DNA of 55,269 bases from Nanobdellota archaeon. Its GTDB lineage: Archaea > Nanobdellota > Nanobdellia > Woesearchaeales > GW2011-AR9. Shown here piece after piece: positions 4,034 through 54,399 of the stretch. The stretch spans positions 1 through 55,269 of the forward strand of contig JBBSYZ010000015.1 in the NCBI GenBank assembly GCA_038045005.1, in the 5' to 3' direction. Numbering within the stretch: position 1 is the first letter of the stretch; every line of letters starts with the position of its first letter. The notes below the pieces were generated by a model. The model did not search any database and had not been told where the DNA came from. It worked only from the letters and a program-made list of their open reading frames with translations. The translations under genes were made by a program, and so were the position numbers.

Positions 4034-4112
4034 TTTATCTTGCGATATTCACATTAAAAGAACCAGAAAGCTACGTATTTTGATTGGCGGATAATGGCTT
4101 TCTGTTTCTTTT

Positions 4113-4274
4113 ATGTCCCAAAGTGCGGGGTCAAGAAAGCGCCTTCTTTTTTAAACTAATTTATTGTAAGCTTTAGTACGTAGTTAGGAACTTTCAAGAA
4201 ATATGAAAACTATCATATTTCTGAACTGAAAACAGATCGTTGTCGGTTTTCATTTTCCCGCACTTTTAGGACAT
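4113..4274. repeat. Foldback element, copy 1 (arms shared with 8251-8458)
   Basis: The arms are ATGTCCCAAAGTGCGGGG (4113-4130) and TTCCCGCACTTTTAGGACAT (4255-4274), and they are complementary. The same arms occur at 8251-8268 and 8441-8458. The interior differs between the two copies except for the shared mini-element. Confidence 0.8.
4195..4254 (+). mobile_element. 60-nt tandem-hairpin mini-element, copy A
   Basis: Sequence CAAGAAATATGA-AAACTA-TCATATTTCTG-AAC-TGAAAAC-AGATCGTTGTCG-GTTTTCATT, flanked by TT on both sides. 59/60 identical to 8381-8440. Confidence 0.7.
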
Positions 4275-8204: not shown

Positions 8205-8458
8205 AAGGACGGATAGCTCCGCACTTTAGTGCGGAGTATCCAGCCCTTTTATGTCACAAAGTGCGGGGATTAGAAAGCCCAAAATAAAGCAACGACTTTA
8301 TTTGGGCACAAACGAAATCGTTGTTTCGTTTTGTGCGTCTCTTTTCAAGCCTCGCTCTTTAGAGCGAGGTGAGACGCTTTCAAGAAATATGAAAACTATC
8401 ATATTTCTGAACTGAAAACAGATCGTTGTCGGTTTTCATGTTCCCGCACTTTCATGAC
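8205..8458. repeat. Nested palindromic region including foldback element copy 2
   Basis: Hairpin GGATAGCTCCGCAC-TTTA-GTGCGGAGTATCC at 8210-8241. Foldback arms at 8251-8268 and 8441-8458. Internal hairpins are CCCAAAATAAAG...CTTTATTTGGG, CAAACGAAA...TTTCGTTTTG and GCGTCTC..CCTCGCTC-TTTA-GAGCGAGG..GAGACGC. Mini-element at 8381-8440. Confidence 0.8.
8381..8440 (+). mobile_element. 60-nt tandem-hairpin mini-element, copy B
   Basis: Identical to 4195-4254 except the last base (G versus T). Flanked by TT on both sides. Confidence 0.7.
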
Positions 8459-18098: not shown

Positions 18099-19731
18099 GG
18101 GTATCGTTCTCCAGCAGGGCACGATGTAAGGTCTTAAGCGATAGCAATGCGCAGTTAATCCTAGTGGGGCTGATAGGGATGCCTAACAGATCTAATACTT
18201 GCTTTTCGCCAATTGATTTTATGTCTTCGACTTCTTTCCCCTTAATTTTTTCTAACAGCATTGATACCGAAGCCTGGCTTATCGCGCATCCGCTGCCGGT
18301 AAATGTGGCGCCGATGATTTTATCATTTTCTAATTTTAAATAAACGGTTATTTGATCCCCGCATAACGGATTTACTTGTTTTTGTTTAAGCGTGTATTTT
18401 TCCATCTCTCCCTTATTTTTAGGAGATTTGTAATGGTCGATTAAGTTTTCTTTACATAACTCCTCTTCTTCAGTCAACGCTATGATAATTTCGTCATTTG
18501 CTGTCTGGAGATCAACTAAACTTTCGGTTTTAGCTTTGTTCAGTTCAATTATTTTTAGTGTTGCAGTAATCAGTTTATCAACATCATTTAAATCATTGTA
18601 AATATAGGGTGATACACGGGTCGCTCCATTCCCGCCCAGAACTGAAAACAGCGGCATGGTGCAAAGGAATCCCCCCCTGACTGCAATATTTACCTTATCA
18701 AGCAATTCATTCACATCATGCGGATGCATTCCGTCGATGGTGAATGAAATAATCGGCCCCCTGTTTTTAATATCGGCCGGGCCAATAATAGTTAGGCCTG
18801 GAATTACAGACAATCTTTCTAAAGCGTCTTTTGCCAATTCTTGGCCGTGAGCAGATATATTTTCCATTCCGATATTTTGTAAATATTCGATTGCTGCCAT
18901 CAATCCTGCTGCACCAGCCAGGTTAGGGGTTCCCGCTTCAAATTTCCATGGCAGCTGATTCCAGGTTGATTTTTCAAAAGTAACTTCATTTATCATTCCG
19001 CCGCCGAATTGGAAAGGATCCATCTTTTCCAGCAATTCTTTCTTGCCGTATAAGACGCCGATGCCTGCCGGTCCGCACATTTTGTGCCCGGAAAACACCA
19101 AGAAATCGCAATCTAGTTCTTTGACGTTTATTTTCAGGTGGGGGACTGACTGCGCAGCGTCTAATATGATTATTGCGCCGACCTTATGTGCCATTGCGGC
19201 CAGTTCTTTAGCCGGGTTGATGGTCCCCAATACATTTGACATATGCACGACAGAAACTATTTTAGTTTTGGCGGTAATAAGTTCTTGCGCTTTAGCCAGA
19301 TCTAATCTGTACTCTTTGGTGATGGGGATAAACTTTACTGTTGCTTCCCGTTCTTTTGCGATTTGCTGCCAGGGGACGATGTTGCTGTGATGTTCCATCT
19401 CCGTCAACACTATTTCATCTCCTGCTTTCAGGTTTTTACCCAAAGAATACGCCAGCAGGTTCAATCCTTCGGTAGTTCCTTTGGTGAAAATGATCTCTTC
19501 AAATTCTGCGCCGATGAATTTCGCAGCAGCTTCATGCGCTTTTTCGTAGAGCAGGGTAGATTTTTGCGCTAACTTGTAAATGCCGCGATGCACATTGGCA
19601 TTGTCGTTTTCGTAATATTCTTTTACAGCTTCAATTACTTTTGTTGGTTTCTGGGCAGTCGCACTATTATCTAAATAGATCAATCCGTTTTTCAGTATTG
19701 GGAAATCTTCTTTCATACTGCCTTGTCTCAT
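18091..19731 (-). CDS. sufS: Cysteine desulfurase SufS fused to a SufU/IscU-like scaffold domain
   Basis: The N-terminal ~410 aa are a SufS-type aminotransferase (SGHKMCGPAGIGVLYG; RGGFLC). The C-terminal ~130 aa are LIDHYKSPKNKGEM...NPLCGDQITVYL...GSGCAISQASVSML...NCALLS. Confidence 0.85.
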   Translation of the reverse strand: MRQGSMKEDFPILKNGLIYLDNSATAQKPTKVIEAVKEYYENDNANVHRGIYKLAQKSTLLYEKAHEAAAKFIGAEFEEIIFTKGTTEGLNLLAYSLGKNLKAGDEIVLTEMEHHSNIVPWQQIAKEREATVKFIPITKEYRLDLAKAQELITAKTKIVSVVHMSNVLGTINPAKELAAMAHKVGAIIILDAAQSVPHLKINVKELDCDFLVFSGHKMCGPAGIGVLYGKKELLEKMDPFQFGGGMINEVTFEKSTWNQLPWKFEAGTPNLAGAAGLMAAIEYLQNIGMENISAHGQELAKDALERLSVIPGLTIIGPADIKNRGPIISFTIDGMHPHDVNELLDKVNIAVRGGFLCTMPLFSVLGGNGATRVSPYIYNDLNDVDKLITATLKIIELNKAKTESLVDLQTANDEIIIALTEEEELCKENLIDHYKSPKNKGEMEKYTLKQKQVNPLCGDQITVYLKLENDKIIGATFTGSGCAISQASVSMLLEKIKGKEVEDIKSIGEKQVLDLLGIPISPTRINCALLSLKTLHRALLENDTHE

Positions 19732-21125
19732 ACTGTCTTCTCCATTTCCAACTCAATCAATTTGTTTAATTCTATGGCATATTCCAGCGGGAGTTCCTTA
19801 AGAATCGGTTCGATAAACCCGGAAACCATCAATTTCATGGCGGCTTCTTCAGATAAACCCCGGCTTTGCAAGTAAAAAACAGTTTCTTCATTTATTTTTC
19901 CCACTTTCGCTTCATGCGCAGCATCGACCTGATGGTTCTCTACTTTTAATGACGGGATGGTATTGGAAACAGACAGTTCATCAAGGATCAAACCATCACA
20001 TACTACGCTGGTTACGGCGCCTTTCGCTTTCGGTAAAATTCTCACTAAGCCCCTGTAATTAGAAATTCCGCCGTCTCTGCACATGCTCTTCGAGCGGATG
20101 ATCGAACGGGTGTTGGGAGCAGCGTGGATGGCTTTCGCGCCGATATCTTGGATTTGTCCTTTACCGGCAAAAGCTATGCTAAGGTTATCAGTCCTGGCCC
20201 CTTCTCCCAGCAGTACCGAACAGGGGTAGAGCATAGTCACACAGCCGCCCATGTTTCCAGATACCCAGGCCATAGTTCCGTCTTTTTCCACCAGCGCACG
20301 TTTTGTGTTCAGATTGTAAACATTCTTGCTCCAATTTTCTATGCTGGTATAACGGACTTTCGCCCCCTCTTTTACAAAAATTTCAACACCTCCCGCGTGT
20401 AAGGATTTTTTGCTGTATCTGGGCGAGGAACACCCTTCGATATAATGTAATTCTGCCCCTTCATCGACGATGATCAAGGTGTGTTCAAACTGTCCGCCAC
20501 GCTGCTGATTCATGCGGAAATATGCCTGCAGGGGAAGTTTTACTTTTACGCCCTTCGGTATATAGATGAAAGTTCCCCCGCTCCACACTGCCGCATGAAG
20601 CATGATGAATTTATGGTCATTGATGGGGATGCAGGAAGTCATAAAATATTTGTTTATCAAATCGGGATATTTTTGCACTGCCGTATCCATGTTCTCAAAT
20701 ATCACTCCTTGGTCTTTCAACTCTTCCATGATGCGGTGATAGACCACCTGTGAATCGTATTGGCCCCCCACCCCGCCCAGCGCTTTTTTTTCCGCTTCAG
20801 GGATGCCTAAGCGATCAAATGTCTTCCTGATTTCTTCCGGCACTTCTTCCCAGTTCTCGGTCTCTTTTGCATCCGGCTCGACAAAGAAAATGATCTCATT
20901 GATGTTTAAGCCGGATAAGTCTGGCCCCCAAGTCGGTGCGGGCGTTTGGTTGAACAGTTCTAAAGCTTTCAGTCTTTTTTTAAGCATCCATTCCGGTTCG
21001 TTTTTGGTTTTAGAAATAAGCCGGACGACTTCCGCGTTCAGGCCTGGTTCAGCGACGTATCTAGCTTTATGCCGATCTGCTTTATCATACAATTCACGGT
21101 CGATGTTCAGGTCTATTTTCTGCAT
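19728..21125 (-). CDS. sufB: Fe-S cluster assembly protein SufB
   Basis: 465 aa. Characteristic SufB core from FEHTLIIVDEGAELHYIEGCS to QVDAAHEAKVGKINEETVFYLQSRGL. Confidence 0.92.
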   Translation of the reverse strand: MQKIDLNIDRELYDKADRHKARYVAEPGLNAEVVRLISKTKNEPEWMLKKRLKALELFNQTPAPTWGPDLSGLNINEIIFFVEPDAKETENWEEVPEEIRKTFDRLGIPEAEKKALGGVGGQYDSQVVYHRIMEELKDQGVIFENMDTAVQKYPDLINKYFMTSCIPINDHKFIMLHAAVWSGGTFIYIPKGVKVKLPLQAYFRMNQQRGGQFEHTLIIVDEGAELHYIEGCSSPRYSKKSLHAGGVEIFVKEGAKVRYTSIENWSKNVYNLNTKRALVEKDGTMAWVSGNMGGCVTMLYPCSVLLGEGARTDNLSIAFAGKGQIQDIGAKAIHAAPNTRSIIRSKSMCRDGGISNYRGLVRILPKAKGAVTSVVCDGLILDELSVSNTIPSLKVENHQVDAAHEAKVGKINEETVFYLQSRGLSEEAAMKLMVSGFIEPILKELPLEYAIELNKLIELEMEKTV

Positions 21126-21200
21126 ATTGCCACTTTTCTTAACTATAGTTAATTATTTATAAAGATTGCGTGGAAAATTCAGCGAAAAGCTTATATAATC

Positions 21201-21230
21201 TTTTGTTATCTTTCGTTATCTTTTGTTATA
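21201..21230 (+). promoter_or_regulatory. Three phased 10-bp direct repeats, candidate operator of the antitoxin/toxin operon
   Basis: TTTTGTTATC, TTTCGTTATC and TTTTGTTATA are exactly 10 bp apart. They lie between CTTATATAAT (about 21190-21199) and the ATG at 21250. Confidence 0.5.
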
Positions 21231-21249
21231 AACCCTCATCTGAAGAAAA

Positions 21250-21495
21250 ATGACCCAAGCTTTAATTAATTTAGGAGAGTACGAAGACCGGATTTTAACC
21301 ATCGTTAAAGGAAAGTATGGCCTTAAAAATAAATCAGAAGCTATTAATTTTGTGATCGATAAGTATGAAGAAGAGCTTCTTGAGCCAAAATTAAAACCTG
21401 AATTTGTGCATAGGATGAAGGTCTTGGAAAAGACGGGCAAGTATAAGAGTTATAAATCAATTTCTGATCTGCGGAAAGATATCGAAAATGCATAA
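21250..21495 (+). CDS. Small antitoxin-like protein (RHH/CopG-like, DUF2683-like)
   Basis: 81 aa. Starts MTQALINLGEYEDRILTIVKGKYGLKNKSEAINFVI. The stop overlaps the ATG of the RelE-like ORF (ATGCATAA). Confidence 0.55.
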   Translation: MTQALINLGEYEDRILTIVKGKYGLKNKSEAINFVIDKYEEELLEPKLKPEFVHRMKVLEKTGKYKSYKSISDLRKDIENA

Positions 21496-21978
21496 TTTCT
21501 TAGTTGAAGAAGGCTTGCGGAAAATTCTTCAGAAAGCGGCTAAGAAAGACAAAGTAATGTATGAAGCAGTTATGAAAAAGTTTGATGAGATCATTTTTAG
21601 CGCAGATGTTGAACATTATAGAGAGTTTTGAATAACCCTTAAATCCGAATGTAATCTCGCAGATTTATTCGTAAATTCAAAACACTCAAAAATGCTAAAA
21701 GCATTTTTAGTGTCCAAGAAAAGCCAACAGCTTTTCTCAGGACTCTATAGAGAACTTTGAATAGTGCTCAATGAAACAAAGATTTCATTGGCACTTAAAT
21801 GAAGTAGTTTCTTCATTTATAGTTTTTCAAAGTTCTCTATAAAAATTTACGGGCTCCTTTACAGGAATTTAAGCGGGTGCATATCAAAGGGTCTTTCGTT
21901 TTAATTTTCAAATACCTGCCTTCCGAGGACAGGATTATCTTTTTTGAATTAGATCATCATGATAATATTTACCGCTAA
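21488..21978 (+). pseudogene. RelE/ParE-like toxin gene interrupted by a 221-nt insertion
   Basis: Exon-like part 1 (21488-21619) reads MHNFLVEEGLRKILQKAAKKDKVMYEAVMKKFDEIIFSADVEHY. Part 2 (21841-21978) reads KNLRAPLQEFKRVHIKGSFVLIFKYLPSEDRIIFFELDHHDNIYR. Removing 221 nt restores one 89-codon frame. Confidence 0.75.
21621..21837. mobile_element. Composite MITE-like insertion inside the toxin gene
   Basis: Flanked by TATA (21617-21620 and 21838-21841). The outer ends are GAGAGTTTTGAA and TTCAAAGTTCTC. The inner 88-nt unit at 21750-21837 has perfect 12-bp terminal inverted repeats (TIRs) GAGAACTTTGAA/TTCAAAGTTCTC, its own TATA at 21746-21749 and two internal hairpins, one with loop TAGTTT. Confidence 0.75.
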
Positions 21979-21984
21979 ACAAGC

Positions 21985-22081
21985 GGCTCTGTGGAAAAAG
22001 TCGCAAGAAAACTGAAAACTATGGTATTTCTGTGCAGAAATAAGGTTTCCTTATTCTTGCGGCGACTTTTTCCACAGGGCC
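21985..22081. repeat. Palindrome carrying a mini-element
   Basis: Arms GGCTCTGTGGAAAAAGTCG and CGACTTTTTCCACAGGGCC enclose the 56-nt element at 22004-22059. Confidence 0.75.
22004..22059 (+). mobile_element. 56-nt tandem-hairpin mini-element, copy C (degenerate)
   Basis: Sequence CAAGAAAACTGA-AAACTA-TGGTATTTCTG-TGC-AGAAATAAGG-TTTC-CTTATTCTTG, flanked by CG on both sides. Confidence 0.6.
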
Positions 22082-22146
22082 GAACCAATCGAAAGGTATA
22101 TAAAGAAAAAACATCTTCTAAAGCTAAAAGAGTTTGATGGTGATAG

Positions 22147-29583: not shown

Positions 29584-29676
29584 GGGGCCATAGTTCAGAC
29601 TGGGAGAACACATGGCTGAAGAGTAATGGTTTACTACGAAACCATGACGTCGTGGGTTCAAATCCCACTGGCCCCA
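29584..29676 (+). tRNA. tRNA-Phe (GAA) with 19-nt intron at the canonical 37/38 position
   Basis: Acceptor GGGGCCA/TGGCCCC with discriminator A73. D arm GTTC-AGACTGGGA-GAAC. Anticodon stem CATGG/CCATG with loop CTGAAG^A interrupted by AGTAATGGTTTACTACGAA. T arm GTGGG-TTCAAAT-CCCAC. No encoded CCA. Confidence 0.9.
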
Positions 29677-29778
29677 CATTTTTCTAATGTTTTAATTTTG
29701 ATTAATTCCATCTCCGCAAATTCTATCTCCGTATTTTCTCGGATAACATTTAAATATATTCCATCTCCTCCAACGAAT

Positions 29779-30603
29779 ATGGATGTCGGAGGGCAGGCGG
29801 TAATTGAAGGAGTAATGATGCGCAATAAAGAGAAGTACGCCGTTGCAGTGCGTCTGCCTTCGGGAGAGATAAAAGTCATTAAACAGCAAAGCAGCAAATT
29901 TTCCCCCTGGTTCAATGTGTTCTTTATCCGCGGCGTGGTAGGATTAGGCTATACATTATATGACGGCATCAATGCGTTGGTCTGGAGCAGCAGCCAAAGT
30001 CTCGGAAAAGAAGAGCAGCTGAGCAAAAAAGAGATTGTCGGCACTATCGTCTTATCTTTTCTGGCAGCAATCCTTATTTTTGTAGCGGTTCCGTTCTTCA
30101 CTGCCAGTTGGATTTATGCCGAAGGGATATGGTTTAACGTGTTGGAAGGATTATTTCGTGCGGTTATTTTTGTCGGGTATCTGGCCGCAATTTCATTCCT
30201 GAAAGATGTAAAGGCTCTGTTCCGGTACCACGGAGCTGAACATAAAACTATTTATTGTTATGAGAACAAAAAAGAATTGACGGTCAAAAATGTCAAAAAA
30301 TTTTCCCGTTTCCATCCCCGCTGCGGAACCTCTTTCTTGTTTGTCATCCTGATGTTGTCCATATTTTTGTTCACTTTCATCTCCGGCCCGCTGTGGATGA
30401 AATTTTTAGGGAGGATTGCAGCTCTTCCGATCATCGCCGGAATAGGATATGAATTGATCAAATTAAGCAGCAGACATAGCGGTAATTTTTTAGTAAAACT
30501 GGTTATCGCTCCGGGATTGTGGATGCAGAGAATCACCACTAAAGAACCTACTGATAAGCAGATAGAAGTGGGCATCGCATCGCTGAAAGCGGTGCTGGAA
30601 TGA
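29779..30603 (+). CDS. DUF1385-family membrane protein
   Basis: Start [16 protein letters not shown]. Conserved HGAEHK and [10 protein letters not shown] motifs. The track ORF start at 29626 overlaps the tRNA and is rejected. Confidence 0.7.
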
Positions 30604-31035: not shown

Positions 31036-31045
31036 TTTTCATTGC

Positions 31046-31085
31046 ACTCAAAAAGCCATTGGCTAAAGCCAATGGCTTTTTAGTG
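31046..31085. terminator. Bidirectional terminator-like hairpin between convergent genes
   Basis: CACTCAAAAAGCCATTGGC-TAAA-GCCAATGGCTTTTTAGTG. The stem is flanked by A and T tracts and sits between the 30685-31035 gene (+) and rad50 (-). Confidence 0.6.
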
Positions 31086-31111
31086 TCCTAAAAATGCGCT
31101 TTCCAGCATTT

Positions 31112-33523
31112 TTATGACATTATAGAGCTCACGTGCCCTTCTTTACTGACTTTGATAGTATTCTCCACGAAACTTTCTATCTTTGATTCGTGGGAGACGA
31201 TTATGGTCTGCCGTAAATTTAATTTTTCCATAACCTCGCGCACTTTATCCAGCTGTTCAGTGCTGAATCCGTCCGTGGGTTCGTCTAAAATCAACAGTTC
31301 TTTGGTGTTGATGGTGTGGATGACGTCATTGATCACCTTGTTCAGGGCCAGCCGGTAAGCGAGAGCGGCAGAAGTCTTTTCCCCGCCGCTCAGTTCGAAA
31401 AAAGAGATCTCGTAGCCGTTCTGCTGGATGCAAGGAGCAAAAGAGTCGTCAAGCTGGGCATAGATATTCTCATCGTCGATAAGCATAGAAAACCATTCCT
31501 GAAACAGCAGGCTGAAATGGCGGTGGATATGTATCATTACTTGTTTCTCGATAGTCAACGTCAAAGGCAGGAAATATTCTTCCAGCCAATGGTACAGCTC
31601 CTGCTGGCGGACTAATTTTTGCTGCTCTCCATCCAGGAAAACAATGCGTTCCTGCACTTCCTGGCAATGCCGCTTGGTGCTTTCCTGTCCGGTCTGCAAC
31701 TGCGCCAATTTCACGGCGATATCTTTTTCTTCCTCTATGAGGTTAGAAAAAGTTTCCTTTTTGATTATGATCTCTTTACTTCGATCATTTTTCTGGCAGA
31801 GTTCCATCTCTATCTTTTCCTTGACTCTCCGAAGCTCCAGAAGCCGCAGGTTAGTCTCCTCTTTTTGCCGGGAGCTTTCGGCTAAATTTTTTTCCAAGAT
31901 GAAATGCTGAGATAACAATCGGATCAATTTCTGTTTCTGCTGGGCTTGCGAAGTCAGCTCTTCGATATTATTCTGCTGCAGCAATTCCTGCTGCTTCTGC
32001 ATGGCGGCATTATTTTCCTGTACCAGCAGGCGCAGCTGTTCTTTTTTTTGGACTAATTGTTCTTTCTTTTTATGCAGCTGCTGCAGTTCCGCATCGATCC
32101 TCAATAATATATTCTCTTGAGAAATAATCTCCATAAGATTTTTTTCCCCGCTTTCTTTTTTGAGAAGTATTTCTTTTCTTTTCTTATCGAGTTCTTCCAG
32201 GAGCTGCTGCGCTTTAATCACTTTGGCATCTTCCTGGGAAACTATCTGGTGTTTGTGTTCTTGAGAAACTTGTTGCAGGCAGGTGGGGCAGTTTTCTAAT
32301 CCTGAAATCTTTTCTTGCAGCTCCCTGGATTGGGCCAGCAAAGTCTTATTTTTGATCATCAGGGAAGATGTTTTCTCGTAAAGTTCGTCTATCTCAGCTT
32401 TTTGTTGCAGCAATTCTTTTTTCTTTCCAAGCTCCTGCATGATTTTTTCTTTTGTTTTTTCGTTTTCCTGGCTGCCGGCAATCTCCTGTGAAAGTTCAGC
32501 CATCTGCTGCTGTTTTTGCGCAATCAATTCCCGGAAATGGCTTATCCTGCTTTCCAGCACGGTTTTAGAAGTCAAATATCGGTTTTTTTGTTCTTCCACC
32601 TCCTGCAATTCCTTTTGAATATGTTCCAGGGTAAGATTTTCCGGAAGAGATAGTTGATTAATTTCTTCTTTCAATTGCTGCTGTTTAAGTTCCGTCTGCC
32701 GCAATCTTTTCTGCTGTTCTTCCGCGAGCAGTAAAACCATTTTTAATTCCTGCTGCTCATGGACGAATTCTTTCTGCTGCAATTCCAGTTCTTCCAGCTC
32801 TTGTTTCTGCTGCAGGAATTTTTTCCTGATTTCCGTTTTTAATGGGAGGAGCTCCTGGACGGACCGTTCTGTCTTTTCCAGTTCCAGCAGCAATTGCCGA
32901 TGTTGCATTTTGTATTCCTGCAGCGGCTCTATTTTAGCGTTGAGCGCGGTTACATCTGAACGCGCCTTTTTAAGATAGACCTGCACATTCTCCCGAATAT
33001 TTTTGTAGCGGTCGATGTTGAATATCTTTCGTAGGCCGTCCAGGCGTATTTCGGCGTCTTCATGCAGGATCAGTTTCATCTCTTCCTGCGGAGTGTAGAC
33101 GGTGTAGCGAAAAATATAATTTTTATTTTTGGAAAGAAAATCTTCCGGATATCCCAATAAGGAAAGCATCTCTGCCTTCATTTCTACCGGCATGAGCTCT
33201 TTCTTGACATTATTGATAGTGATATGCCCCGGCATCTGCCGGACGGTATCCTTTTCTTTCTTGAGGTTCCGTTGGATAGTTATTTCCATCCCAGGCAGGA
33301 GAAAAGCCAATTCTACGAATCCTTTCGCCGCTCCTTTCCGCAGCAGGGATTCCGCAGGCAGATCGGGCCGGGAAGCGCCGAATAAAACAAATTCTATGGC
33401 CAGAAGAATGGTCGATTTTCCTGAACCGATGTCGCCGGATAAGAGGGTGGAACCTTCAGGAAAAGAGATACTCTCATCTATGTAGGAACGGATATTCTGT
33501 AAGCGCAGTCTCTGGAGAAACAT
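31112..33523 (-). CDS. rad50: DNA double-strand break repair ATPase Rad50
   Basis: Start MFLQRLRLQNIRSY. Walker A GDIGSGKST. Very long coiled coil with a central zinc hook CPTC. Signature LSGGEKTSAALAY and Walker B ELLILDEPTDG. The track ORF extension to 33610 is rejected. Confidence 0.9.
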   Translation of the reverse strand: MFLQRLRLQNIRSYIDESISFPEGSTLLSGDIGSGKSTILLAIEFVLFGASRPDLPAESLLRKGAAKGFVELAFLLPGMEITIQRNLKKEKDTVRQMPGHITINNVKKELMPVEMKAEMLSLLGYPEDFLSKNKNYIFRYTVYTPQEEMKLILHEDAEIRLDGLRKIFNIDRYKNIRENVQVYLKKARSDVTALNAKIEPLQEYKMQHRQLLLELEKTERSVQELLPLKTEIRKKFLQQKQELEELELQQKEFVHEQQELKMVLLLAEEQQKRLRQTELKQQQLKEEINQLSLPENLTLEHIQKELQEVEEQKNRYLTSKTVLESRISHFRELIAQKQQQMAELSQEIAGSQENEKTKEKIMQELGKKKELLQQKAEIDELYEKTSSLMIKNKTLLAQSRELQEKISGLENCPTCLQQVSQEHKHQIVSQEDAKVIKAQQLLEELDKKRKEILLKKESGEKNLMEIISQENILLRIDAELQQLHKKKEQLVQKKEQLRLLVQENNAAMQKQQELLQQNNIEELTSQAQQKQKLIRLLSQHFILEKNLAESSRQKEETNLRLLELRRVKEKIEMELCQKNDRSKEIIIKKETFSNLIEEEKDIAVKLAQLQTGQESTKRHCQEVQERIVFLDGEQQKLVRQQELYHWLEEYFLPLTLTIEKQVMIHIHRHFSLLFQEWFSMLIDDENIYAQLDDSFAPCIQQNGYEISFFELSGGEKTSAALAYRLALNKVINDVIHTINTKELLILDEPTDGFSTEQLDKVREVMEKLNLRQTIIVSHESKIESFVENTIKVSKEGHVSSIMS

Positions 33524-52592: not shown

Positions 52593-52862
52593 ATGGCAGA
52601 AGTTGTTGCAAAAGTAGGAGTTAAGAAAGTTAAGGGTTACCTTTATTTCGTCGACAAGAAAGGTAATGTCGCCCGCGCTGCTATGAGCAGGGCCGGAAGA
52701 AAGAAAGGTAAGGCAAAAGTAGAAGTTGTCGCTAAAGCCGGTGTCAAGAAAGTGCCTGGATTTCTGTATTTTATCGACAGCAAGGGGCATGTTGCCAGAG
52801 CGATGATGGCTCGCGGCAGGAAAGGCAAGAAAAAAGGCGGCAAGAAGAAGAGAAGAATTTAG
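52593..52862 (+). CDS. Small highly basic protein made of two tandem ~40-aa repeats
   Basis: Repeat 1 is VVAKVGVKKVKGYLYFVDKKGNVARAAMSRAGRKKGK. Repeat 2 is VVAKAGVKKVPGFLYFIDSKGHVARAMMARGRKGKKK. GAGGTG Shine-Dalgarno site upstream. Confidence 0.65.
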   Translation: MAEVVAKVGVKKVKGYLYFVDKKGNVARAAMSRAGRKKGKAKVEVVAKAGVKKVPGFLYFIDSKGHVARAMMARGRKGKKKGGKKKRRI

Positions 52863-53029
52863 AGAGATTAGAATAACCTTAGTTTAGCAGATATTTATCG
52901 TTCAAATCTCTCTAATAGTGTTTTGAAAGGCATTGCAATTCAAAACACCCTTTAATTTTTTTTCTCTTTTTTCTTTTTTAATGTTTTAAGATCTTATGTT
53001 TTTCTGGCATTTAATATCTTCACCGGCAC

Positions 53030-53257
53030 GGGCTAATATGAAACCCTATGCTTCGCAGGTCACTAATAGTCTCGCTAAACCGATGTTTTACGTCGTTGGT
53101 CGGCGTTCCCCGTACATGAAATTAAGAAACTACTTAATTTCAGTACAGAAAATCAATAGTTTTTGATTTTCTTGTAAGGGACAAGCCCCTTGCCGACGTG
53201 AATGTGATTTTTGAACACGCTCGGAAAGGGTTAGTGACCAAGGGTTTCATATTAGCC
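53030..53257. repeat. Foldback MITE-like module, left of the IS (166 nt plus a 62-nt insertion)
   Basis: The 17-bp ends are GGGCTAATATGAAACCC and GGGTTTCATATTAGCC. Bracketed by CCGGCAC at 53023-53029 and 53259-53265. The interior is the reverse complement of the 54234-54399 interior. Confidence 0.8.
53115..53174 (-). mobile_element. 60-nt tandem-hairpin mini-element, copy F (filled site)
   Basis: The plus strand reads CATGAAATTAAG-AAACTA-CTTAATTTCAG-TAC-AGAAAATCAA-TAGTTT-TTGATTTTCTTG, flanked by TA at 53113-53114 and 53175-53176. The homologous position in the other arm (54316-54317) has a single TA and no insert. Confidence 0.8.
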
Positions 53258-53267
53258 TCCGGCACTC

Positions 53268-54216
53268 TATTATCCCGAAACTGGTTTACATCACGAAAGT
53301 GGTTTACACTTTAACTCCTCCCAAACTTCTTTTGGAGTCTTATAATAAAGGCTCATGTGGAGCCTTTCTTCATTATAATGCTTAACAAAATCTCCAAAAG
53401 AAGAAAATGAGCCGGTAGCAAATTCTTCTTTGTACGTTCTGAAGAATCGTTCTACTTTACCATTAGTTTGTGGCCTATTCACCCTCGCTAAAGAATGTTT
53501 TATTCCTAAAACATCTAATGTTGCTCGAAACATTGTATTTTCTTGCTTTGCATTAGGATGATTTGAATAATATTGCGAGCCATGATCAGTCATTACGGCT
53601 TTTGGTTTACCCCATTCAGCTATGCCTGAATGCAAGAGAATAAGACTATTTTCTGCTGTCTGTCTTTTGAACACGCCATGGCTTGTAATTAAGCGTGTTC
53701 TATCATCTATATACACGCTGACATTCGTTCCAGAGAAAGGGTCGTATGACCAATCAGTATGCCACAGATCATTTGGATTTGGAAGTTCGTAACGAACCCA
53801 CTTCCTCGATTTTTGTTTCTTGATATTTGGCTCAACCATTCCATTTCGCACTAAAACTTTCTCTATTTGTCTGTGCGAAATAGCAAATCCTTTTCTCTTA
53901 AGGATTTGCTCAATATGGCATGCGCCATAACGGTGTCTTCGTCTAATATCGAGTATGATTTCAACAGCAGTTTGGTTAAGAATTGTTTCTGAACGACCTG
54001 TTTTATGGTCTTTTAAGCCGTCCCAACCAAATTCTTTGTAAGATCGCACGATTTTTGAAATTGCCATACGGCTGATTCCTTGAGAAAACGCAATTTTTGT
54101 TGTAGAAACACCATTCAACTTTTGCTTAACAACCCATACACGTTTTTTAAAATTAAGTTTATACATATAACCTCACCAAGAGGTTATATTAGATGTAAAC
54201 TAAAAACGTGATACTA
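53268..54216 (-). mobile_element. IS481-family-like insertion sequence
   Basis: The imperfect 25-bp TIRs are TATTATCCCGAAACTGGTTTACATC (53268-53292) and the reverse complement of 54192-54216, TAGTATCACGTTTTTAGTTTACATC. It carries a single DDE transposase gene. Confidence 0.65.
53291..54166 (-). CDS. DDE transposase/integrase (rve core), IS481-like
   Basis: N-terminal HTH. Catalytic motifs are WHTDWSY, MTDHGSQYYS and TNGKVERFFRTYKEEF. Confidence 0.85.
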   Translation of the reverse strand: MYKLNFKKRVWVVKQKLNGVSTTKIAFSQGISRMAISKIVRSYKEFGWDGLKDHKTGRSETILNQTAVEIILDIRRRHRYGACHIEQILKRKGFAISHRQIEKVLVRNGMVEPNIKKQKSRKWVRYELPNPNDLWHTDWSYDPFSGTNVSVYIDDRTRLITSHGVFKRQTAENSLILLHSGIAEWGKPKAVMTDHGSQYYSNHPNAKQENTMFRATLDVLGIKHSLARVNRPQTNGKVERFFRTYKEEFATGSFSSFGDFVKHYNEERLHMSLYYKTPKEVWEELKCKPLS

Positions 54217-54233
54217 CATATCTTCACCGGCAC

Positions 54234-54399
54234 GGGCTAATATGAAACCCTCGGTCACTAACCCTTTCCGAGCGTGTTCAAAAATCACATTCACGTCGGC
54301 AAGGGGCTTGTCCCTTACGGGGAACGCCGACCAACGACGTAAAACATCGGTTTAGCGAGGCTGTTAGTGACCTGCGAAGCATAGGGTTTCATATTAGCC
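54234..54399. repeat. Foldback MITE-like module, right of the IS (empty for the mini-element)
   Basis: Same 17-bp ends as the left module. Bracketed by CCGGCAC at 54227-54233 and 54401-54407. Preceded by the same ATATCTTCA as the left module. Confidence 0.8.

Follow-up and report, generated by a model that had tools for sequence, protein, structure and literature searches.

A chromosomal toxin gene of the YafQ/RelE type in a Woesearchaeota (DPANN) archaeon has very probably been turned into a pseudogene by the recent insertion of a non-autonomous DNA transposon (MITE), that is, by ordinary gene disruption. The locus lies in a stretch of 55,269 nt which was analysed as a whole and is referred to here as the window. 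The 217-nt element is proposed to have inserted into the TATA which spans codons 44 and 45 of the toxin gene (CAT TAT AAA) and to have duplicated this target. Inactivation of the toxin by a mobile element was one of two options put forward in a previous reading of this DNA (the sequence-only reading), and it is now supported by orthologues with an empty site, the target duplication, a further copy of the element with 99% identity and the occurrence of related elements in other Woesearchaeota. The loss of a toxin to a mobile element, with the antitoxin left as an orphan, is a known kind of event. Through this locus, a MITE family with recent activity comes to light in Woesearchaeota, whose mobile DNA is poorly catalogued. 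The coordinates of the features are collected in Table 1.

Table 1 Features of the interrupted toxin-antitoxin locus and related elements in the window
Feature	Position	Strand	Basis or remark
Antitoxin gene, intact, 81 aa, DUF2683 family	21250..21495	+	ORF and Pfam
Truncated toxin ORF (native codons 1-44 at 21488-21619, then REF and TGA)	21488..21631	+	
Left copy of the duplicated target TATA	21617..21620		Empty site; homology of copy 1 and copy 2 starts here
Composite MITE, 217 nt, no coding capacity, outer ends GAGAGTTTTGAA / TTCAAAGTTCTC	21621..21837		Absent from orthologous loci
Module A, 125 nt, hairpins A1, A2 and A3	21621..21745		Folds
Hairpin A1, ends GAGAGTTTTGAA / TTCAAAACACTC	21621-21687		Within module A
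Hairpin A2, A5-GCT-loop-AGC-T5	21688-21708		Within module A
Hairpin A3	21712-21743		Within module A
Inner TATA spacer between modules A and B	21746..21749		TAAA in contig L002
Module B, 88 nt, perfect 12-nt inverted ends GAGAACTTTGAA / TTCAAAGTTCTC	21750..21837		
Right copy of the duplicated target TATA	21838..21841		A at 21841 also opens toxin codon 45
Toxin 3' part, codons 45-89 and stop	21841..21978	+	Other frame than the 5' part
Related hairpin pair between convergent genes	31040..31128		Repeats I8 and I16; 12-nt match
Diverged family member, 91 nt, two hairpin modules	52862..52952		Sequence; inverted repeats I18 and I25

The arrangement of the two genes proved to be as previously described. 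The 3' end of the antitoxin gene overlaps the toxin gene, starting with ATG at 21488, by 8 nt, and the orthologues have the same overlap. The Pfam DUF2683 match of the antitoxin (E 7.7e-7) exceeds the curated cut-off, and the protein is 86-88% identical to the antitoxins at the syntenic orthologous loci. The truncated toxin ORF reads ...SADVEHY, followed by three codons encoded by the element (REF) and TGA at 21629-21631, and its native 5' part aligns with residues 1-44 of YafQ/RelE-type homologues of 89-90 aa. The 3' part (KNLRAPLQEF...DHHDNIYR*, KNLRAPLQEFKRVHIKGSFVLIFKYLPSEDRIIFFELDHHDNIYR) extends from 21841 to the stop codon at 21976-21978. Translation of the toxin ends after 44 native residues and Arg-Glu-Phe, and the C-terminal half lies out of frame, 221 nt off. 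Removal of 221 nt (21620-21840) produces a toxin ORF of 89 aa, in agreement with the earlier claim; all deletions starting from 21617 to 21621 yield identical DNA because TATA is present at both borders.

The rejoined 89-aa protein found 83 uninterrupted database matches of 84-101 aa, with E values down to 3e-42, identities up to 85% and, for most of them, a coverage of 99-100% of the toxin. They come from Woesearchaeota/Nanoarchaeota MAGs and from metagenomes, where several are named RelE or YafQ toxin. The NCBIfam model TIGR00053 (YafQ family) aligned in one piece with residues 7-88 across the junction (E 1.4e-15), its score of 57.6 bits being below the curated cut-off of 87.25 bits. The two halves are thus parts of one RelE/YafQ-type protein, as had been proposed. 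The RelE/StbE model was matched as well, 16 of the 31 homologues carried a Pfam YafQ_toxin match and eight a ParE_toxin match, and a profile of the toxin family compared with the PDB matched HP0892 (E 2e-4) and YafQ structures. Pfam gave sub-threshold matches only for the rejoined toxin by itself; the family assignment rests on NCBIfam, the homologue profile and the PDB, Pfam alone being insufficient for it. PADLOC matched neither the toxin nor the antitoxin. The junction falls within HYKNLR, which ranks among the best conserved stretches of the family, and every invariant and near-invariant family residue is kept in the rejoined toxin. The residues R56, H58, H83, H84, D85 and Y88, all invariant or near-invariant, are located on the 3' part; H58, H83, H84 and D85, which are invariant or nearly so across the family, are candidate counterparts of the YafQ catalytic His/Asp residues. 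The truncation removes all of the conserved C-terminal His and Asp residues and leaves the antitoxin intact. Judging from the truncation, the toxin is probably null, whereas the antitoxin, now an orphan, would still be expressed from a promoter of its own.

The locus resembles the YafQ-DinJ and RelE-RelB type II modules in that an upstream antitoxin gene overlaps a toxin gene of approximately 90 codons, and in that the rejoined toxin fits TIGR00053 and the RelE/StbE model and its profile finds the HP0892 and YafQ structures. It differs from them in its antitoxin, which is an archaeal DUF2683 protein and not DinJ or RelB, in the conserved position of the pair beside sufB in several Woesearchaeota, in being more conserved than SufB, and in the interruption of the toxin. 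When the region 19728-21978 of the window was compared with contigs L004 and L010, the amino acid identity was 82-88% for the toxin-antitoxin pair and 72% for SufB. Such a pair, more conserved than the neighbouring SufB, is unusual for a toxin-antitoxin module. The dN/dS of the toxin versus its orthologues was approximately 0.09.

The empty site is found in the closest homologues. They share the gene order sufB (minus strand)-antitoxin-toxin on several contigs (L004-L012), and the DNA alignment shows CATTATA|AAAAT or CATTATA|AGAAC, with a single TATA and without an insert, where the window has CAT-TATA-[217 nt]-TATA-AAAAT. In the window, the empty site of the toxin gene would read CATTATAAAAAT. 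Judged by this alignment, the element inserted cleanly at the window locus and duplicated 4 nt, and the comparison with uninterrupted orthologues which the sequence-only reading had suggested therefore favours inactivation by a mobile element. The length of 221 nt given there for the insert is correct as the length to be removed; the mobile unit itself comprises 217 nt, to which the 4-nt duplication is added.

The insert is built of two hairpin modules. The ORFs which both start and end inside it encode just 21-23 aa. Its outer ends GAGAGTTTTGAA and TTCAAAGTTCTC are complementary in 10 of the 12 positions as DNA, and as RNA all 12 positions pair, two of them as G-U. The inner 88-nt unit with perfect 12-bp inverted repeats was found again as module B, the repeats of which extend to 16 nt with TATA counted. 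Module A is the counterpart of the GAGAATTTTGAA module in the composites of other genomes. The RNA fold of the region consists of four separate hairpins (21621-21687, 21688-21708, 21712-21743 and 21746-21841), and its folding free energy has a z-score of -10.4 against shuffled controls. A terminator-like hairpin had been noted earlier; a hairpin of this type, with an A5-stem-T5 layout, is present at 21688-21708, although the scan for bacterial-type terminators called no site within the insert. Termination of transcription at oligo-T is established in archaea, and the two T5 runs of the element (21704-21708 and 21823-21827) probably also terminate transcription inside it. The size, the absence of coding capacity, the inverted ends, the target duplication and the near-identical copies are those of a MITE.

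A second, complete copy of the element is present on contigs L031 and L030, in reverse orientation, in the intergenic space between a Laminin_G_3 gene and a ydjM-like gene. This unrelated site also has a TATA flank on each side. The two copies are identical at 215 of 217 positions and differ only at 21622-21623, in the terminal repeat, and their homology extends from the left TATA to one base past the right TATA. L031 and L001 share their sample of origin (coverage 14x and 13x, respectively), and L001 is identical to the window. Contig L002 (NCBI MAG GCA_964365585.1, contig CAYIQN010000070.1) matches the window as far as the right border of the insert and then continues into unrelated DNA with the Laminin_G_3 gene, so it combines the left flank of copy 1 with the right-hand flank of copy 2. 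A change of TATA to TAAA between the modules is private to this contig. The hybrid arose by chimeric assembly or is a genuine recombinant. The Logan contig L003 ends at window position 21653. Such a break is expected for an assembly graph with k=31, the value used by Logan, because the copies are identical from 21624 onward; a break caused by an allele with an empty site would fall at 21620 instead.

The repetition of the element within the genome and the hybrid contig L002 could suggest that a repeat was misplaced by assembly inside an intact toxin gene. We regard the probability of this as practically negligible, since three assemblies from different assemblers (L001, L002 and L003) contain the left junction and both the window and L001 contain the right one, the copy-specific bases 21622-21623 travel with the toxin flank, and a clean duplication of TATA where the orthologues have one TATA is a biological signature. 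Contigs L001-L003, all of which carry the identical antitoxin, behave as expected near a repeat. The MITE family accounts for contig breaks and hybrid contigs, such as L002, in public MAGs. Gene callers annotate the 47-aa toxin stub as a gene, and recognition of the element would improve annotation.

The termini GAGAAYTTTGAA...TTCAAARTTCTC define the family, members of which are present in no fewer than 10 MAGs and metagenomes of the Woesearchaeota type. Other copies of the 88-nt unit, a search for which had been proposed in the sequence-only reading, were sought in GTDB (one genome per species) with the pattern GAGAACTTTGAA-N50-80-TTCAAAGTTCTC. The scan returned 13 loci with the end pair of module B, compared with approximately 0.1 expected by chance according to our estimate; for 11 of them the MAG bears the label Woesearchaeota or Nanoarchaeia, and a single MAG accounts for five. 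Three more loci came from JGI metagenomes, which were scanned for the composite, and this makes 16 further loci with these ends. Two short contigs carrying a Woesearchaeota-type element, L017 (binned as 'Methanosarcinales') and L022 (binned as 'Saccharibacteria'), are likely mis-binned; the module of L022 is closely similar to module 1 of L027 and L028. Most members of the family combine a GAGAATTTTGAA...TTCAAAATTCTC module with a GAGAACTTTGAA...TTCAAAGTTCTC module at a distance of 3-4 nt, a layout which modules A and B of the window match. The internal sequences are alike within a genome (L013/L021/L023; L014/L025; L027/L028) and differ between genomes. Identical 4-nt flanks of A/T only (TATA, TATT in three cases, TAAA in two and TTTA in two) surround 18 of the 19 elements, for two of which the coordinates were set by hand. 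TATT, TAAA and TTTA are not palindromes, and the flanks are therefore true direct duplications and not extensions of the inverted repeats. The members are mostly intergenic, often a few bases past a stop codon, and occur in either orientation.

The composite, with the termini GAGARTTTTGAA...TTCAAAGTTCTC, very probably entered the toxin gene as a single unit. The second copy has the same A-TATA-B structure at an unrelated site, so that the composite must have been mobilized as a whole on at least one occasion. The presence of TATA around each module (TATA-A-TATA-B-TATA), the perfect ends of module B and the occurrence of single-module elements elsewhere (L016, L019 and L025) would also agree with two successive insertions, module B being the first and module A entering the left TATA of B. 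The identical second copy with its TATA flanks, and the two-module composites with constant inner spacers and varied outer duplications (L013/14/21/23 and L027/L028), make this course of events highly improbable for the toxin gene, although nesting may be the origin of the composite as such.

MITEs are known in other prokaryotes, the SM1-SM4 elements of Sulfolobus and the Correia elements of Neisseria being examples. Like these, the elements described here are short and non-coding, have terminal inverted repeats, strong hairpins and a short A/T-rich target duplication, are present in several near-identical copies per genome, and are mostly intergenic, disrupting a gene now and then. The termini (GAGAAYTTTGAA) together with the 4-nt duplication of A/T only are specific to the Woesearchaeota family, which in addition is usually a two-hairpin composite where each module has its own copy of the terminal repeat. 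Its interior differs almost wholly between genomes, whereas the 12-nt ends are identical, and its parent insertion sequence was not found. A literature search found no description of a MITE family in Woesearchaeota, and the family thus appears to be undescribed so far. No element with the family ends was found in a collection of viral contigs.

The second option of the sequence-only reading, marked there as speculative, was conditional expression of the toxin by precise removal of the insert, either from DNA between the TATA repeats or from RNA by BHB splicing or in another way. Introns of the BHB type occur in protein-coding genes of archaea, e.g. in cbf5 of Crenarchaeota. Just as in these, a short non-coding insert is present here, the exact removal of which restores the frame of the ORF. 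Deletion of 221 nt gives a perfect ORF, both halves of which have every conserved residue; the element is very strongly structured; the archaeal host has at least one probable intron-containing tRNA, so that a splicing endonuclease is expected; and a weak BHB-like arrangement exists for the removal of 218 nt (21623-21840). However, a convincing BHB motif (two 3-nt bulges and a 4-bp helix) is missing at the boundaries, and the insert differs from such introns by its target-site duplication, its inverted ends and its copies outside genes in both orientations. The exhaustive BHB scan of both junctions gave 24 hits among 9600 position pairs, a frequency expected by chance, and none of the candidates yields the conserved protein. 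The in-frame BHB-like candidates consist of 2-3 A-U or G-U pairs, which compete with the very stable local hairpins, and they would add one residue (five in the case of two others) to the near-invariant HYKNLR. The terminal repeats (I4) form a continuous helix without bulges, and Rfam detected no intron, ribozyme or sRNA at the gathering score and just chance matches of the hairpin type at E <= 10. The same element lies between genes in the opposite orientation, its relatives likewise occur in both orientations, and this fits a DNA transposon and not an intron. Moreover, among 5.8 billion clustered proteins there was no uninterrupted allele of this species (the best match being 85%), no allele without the insert was found in the contigs which were read, and the graph break in the Logan contig is explained by the second copy and not by an empty-site branch at 21620. 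Taken together, conditional expression of the toxin is very improbable. Programmed translational bypass of the T4 gene 60 type, with its matched take-off and landing codons, was also considered and does not agree with the sequence: the matching UAU codons are here a by-product of the duplicated TATA, the codon following the native part is AGA and not a stop codon, and the gap is 221 nt in contrast to approximately 50 nt.

A reversible MITE switch, by which a rare precise loss of the 221 nt would restore the toxin in a subpopulation, has an equally small probability. Recombination between the two copies of TATA, excision by a transposase or a process at the RNA level would bring about the loss, and the well-preserved halves of the toxin would then have been kept by selection and not as a consequence of the young age of the insertion. 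Intact halves would likewise be expected under selection on a spliced product, but a recent insertion of the MITE is the simpler explanation. The insertion is considered recent because no more than 2 of the 217 positions distinguish the two copies and because the toxin halves are undecayed, with every conserved residue kept and a dN/dS of approximately 0.09 versus the orthologues.

Mobilization of the element would depend on a transposase encoded elsewhere, one that recognizes the 12-nt ends and cuts targets of A/T only with a stagger of 4 nt. In approximately 330 kb of Woesearchaeota DNA which we fetched, no autonomous parent with the family ends was found, neither as inverted ends 600-3500 nt apart nor as any inverted-repeat pair with 4-nt flanks of A/T only; the search returned just an unrelated rve-type IS at 53031-54399. 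This IS encodes the only transposase in the window, an rve-type protein of 291 aa (53291-54166, minus strand); the ends of the IS are unrelated to those of the MITE. Its inverted ends, starting with GGCTAATATGAAACCCT, are at least 40 nt long, and each end holds a short inverted repeat of its own; contig L002 ends inside this inverted repeat. The GAG ends and the 4-nt duplication are reminiscent of the IS5 family as listed in ISfinder, and a parent of this family was therefore considered. The observed targets are not the YTAR of IS5, and no family is claimed.

Two other places in the window are related to the element. The diverged member at 52862-52952 has TTTA flanks at 52858-52861 and 52953-52956, which were read by hand, and is situated right after the gene 52593-52862. 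This ORF encodes a lysine-rich protein of 89 aa with two similar repeats (VAKVGVKKVKGYLYFVDKKGNVARA...) and without a Pfam family; the TTTA flank and the first G of the element together supply its TAG stop codon, which would be TAA without the element. The hairpin pair at 31040-31128, both hairpins of which are of the A5-stem-T5 type, has the same layout as A2 and A3 (CACTC - A5 hairpin T5 - AGTGTCC - hairpin - GAC - TATAGAG) with different stems. It is probably a decayed relative of the family; alternatively, the hairpins could be a bidirectional terminator module carried by the family. On contig L018, a 107-nt family member with TAAA flanks (4089-4195) is located between two minus-strand ORFs which fuse in frame upon removal of the element and one TAAA (111 nt). 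These could represent a second gene disruption or simply two adjacent genes; a disruption was not established, as the ORFs have no Pfam domain and the downstream part starts with ATG.

Right after the toxin stop codon, a 99-nt nested hairpin (21984-22082) has the arms CGGCTCTGTGGAAAAAGTCGC and GCGACTTTTTCCACAGGGCCG. A core of 37 nt is common, with 81% identity, to this hairpin and the elements at 4120-4266 and 8258-8452, which are bounded by AAAGTGCGGGG...CCCGCACTTT. The orthologous intergenic region of L010 contains nothing like the hairpin. This hairpin probably belongs to a second, unrelated MITE-like family at the toxin locus. A 93-nt tRNA at 29584-29677 (Rfam 57 bits), the anticodon of which was not named by ARAGORN, probably contains an intron and overlaps the start of the ORF 29626-30603.
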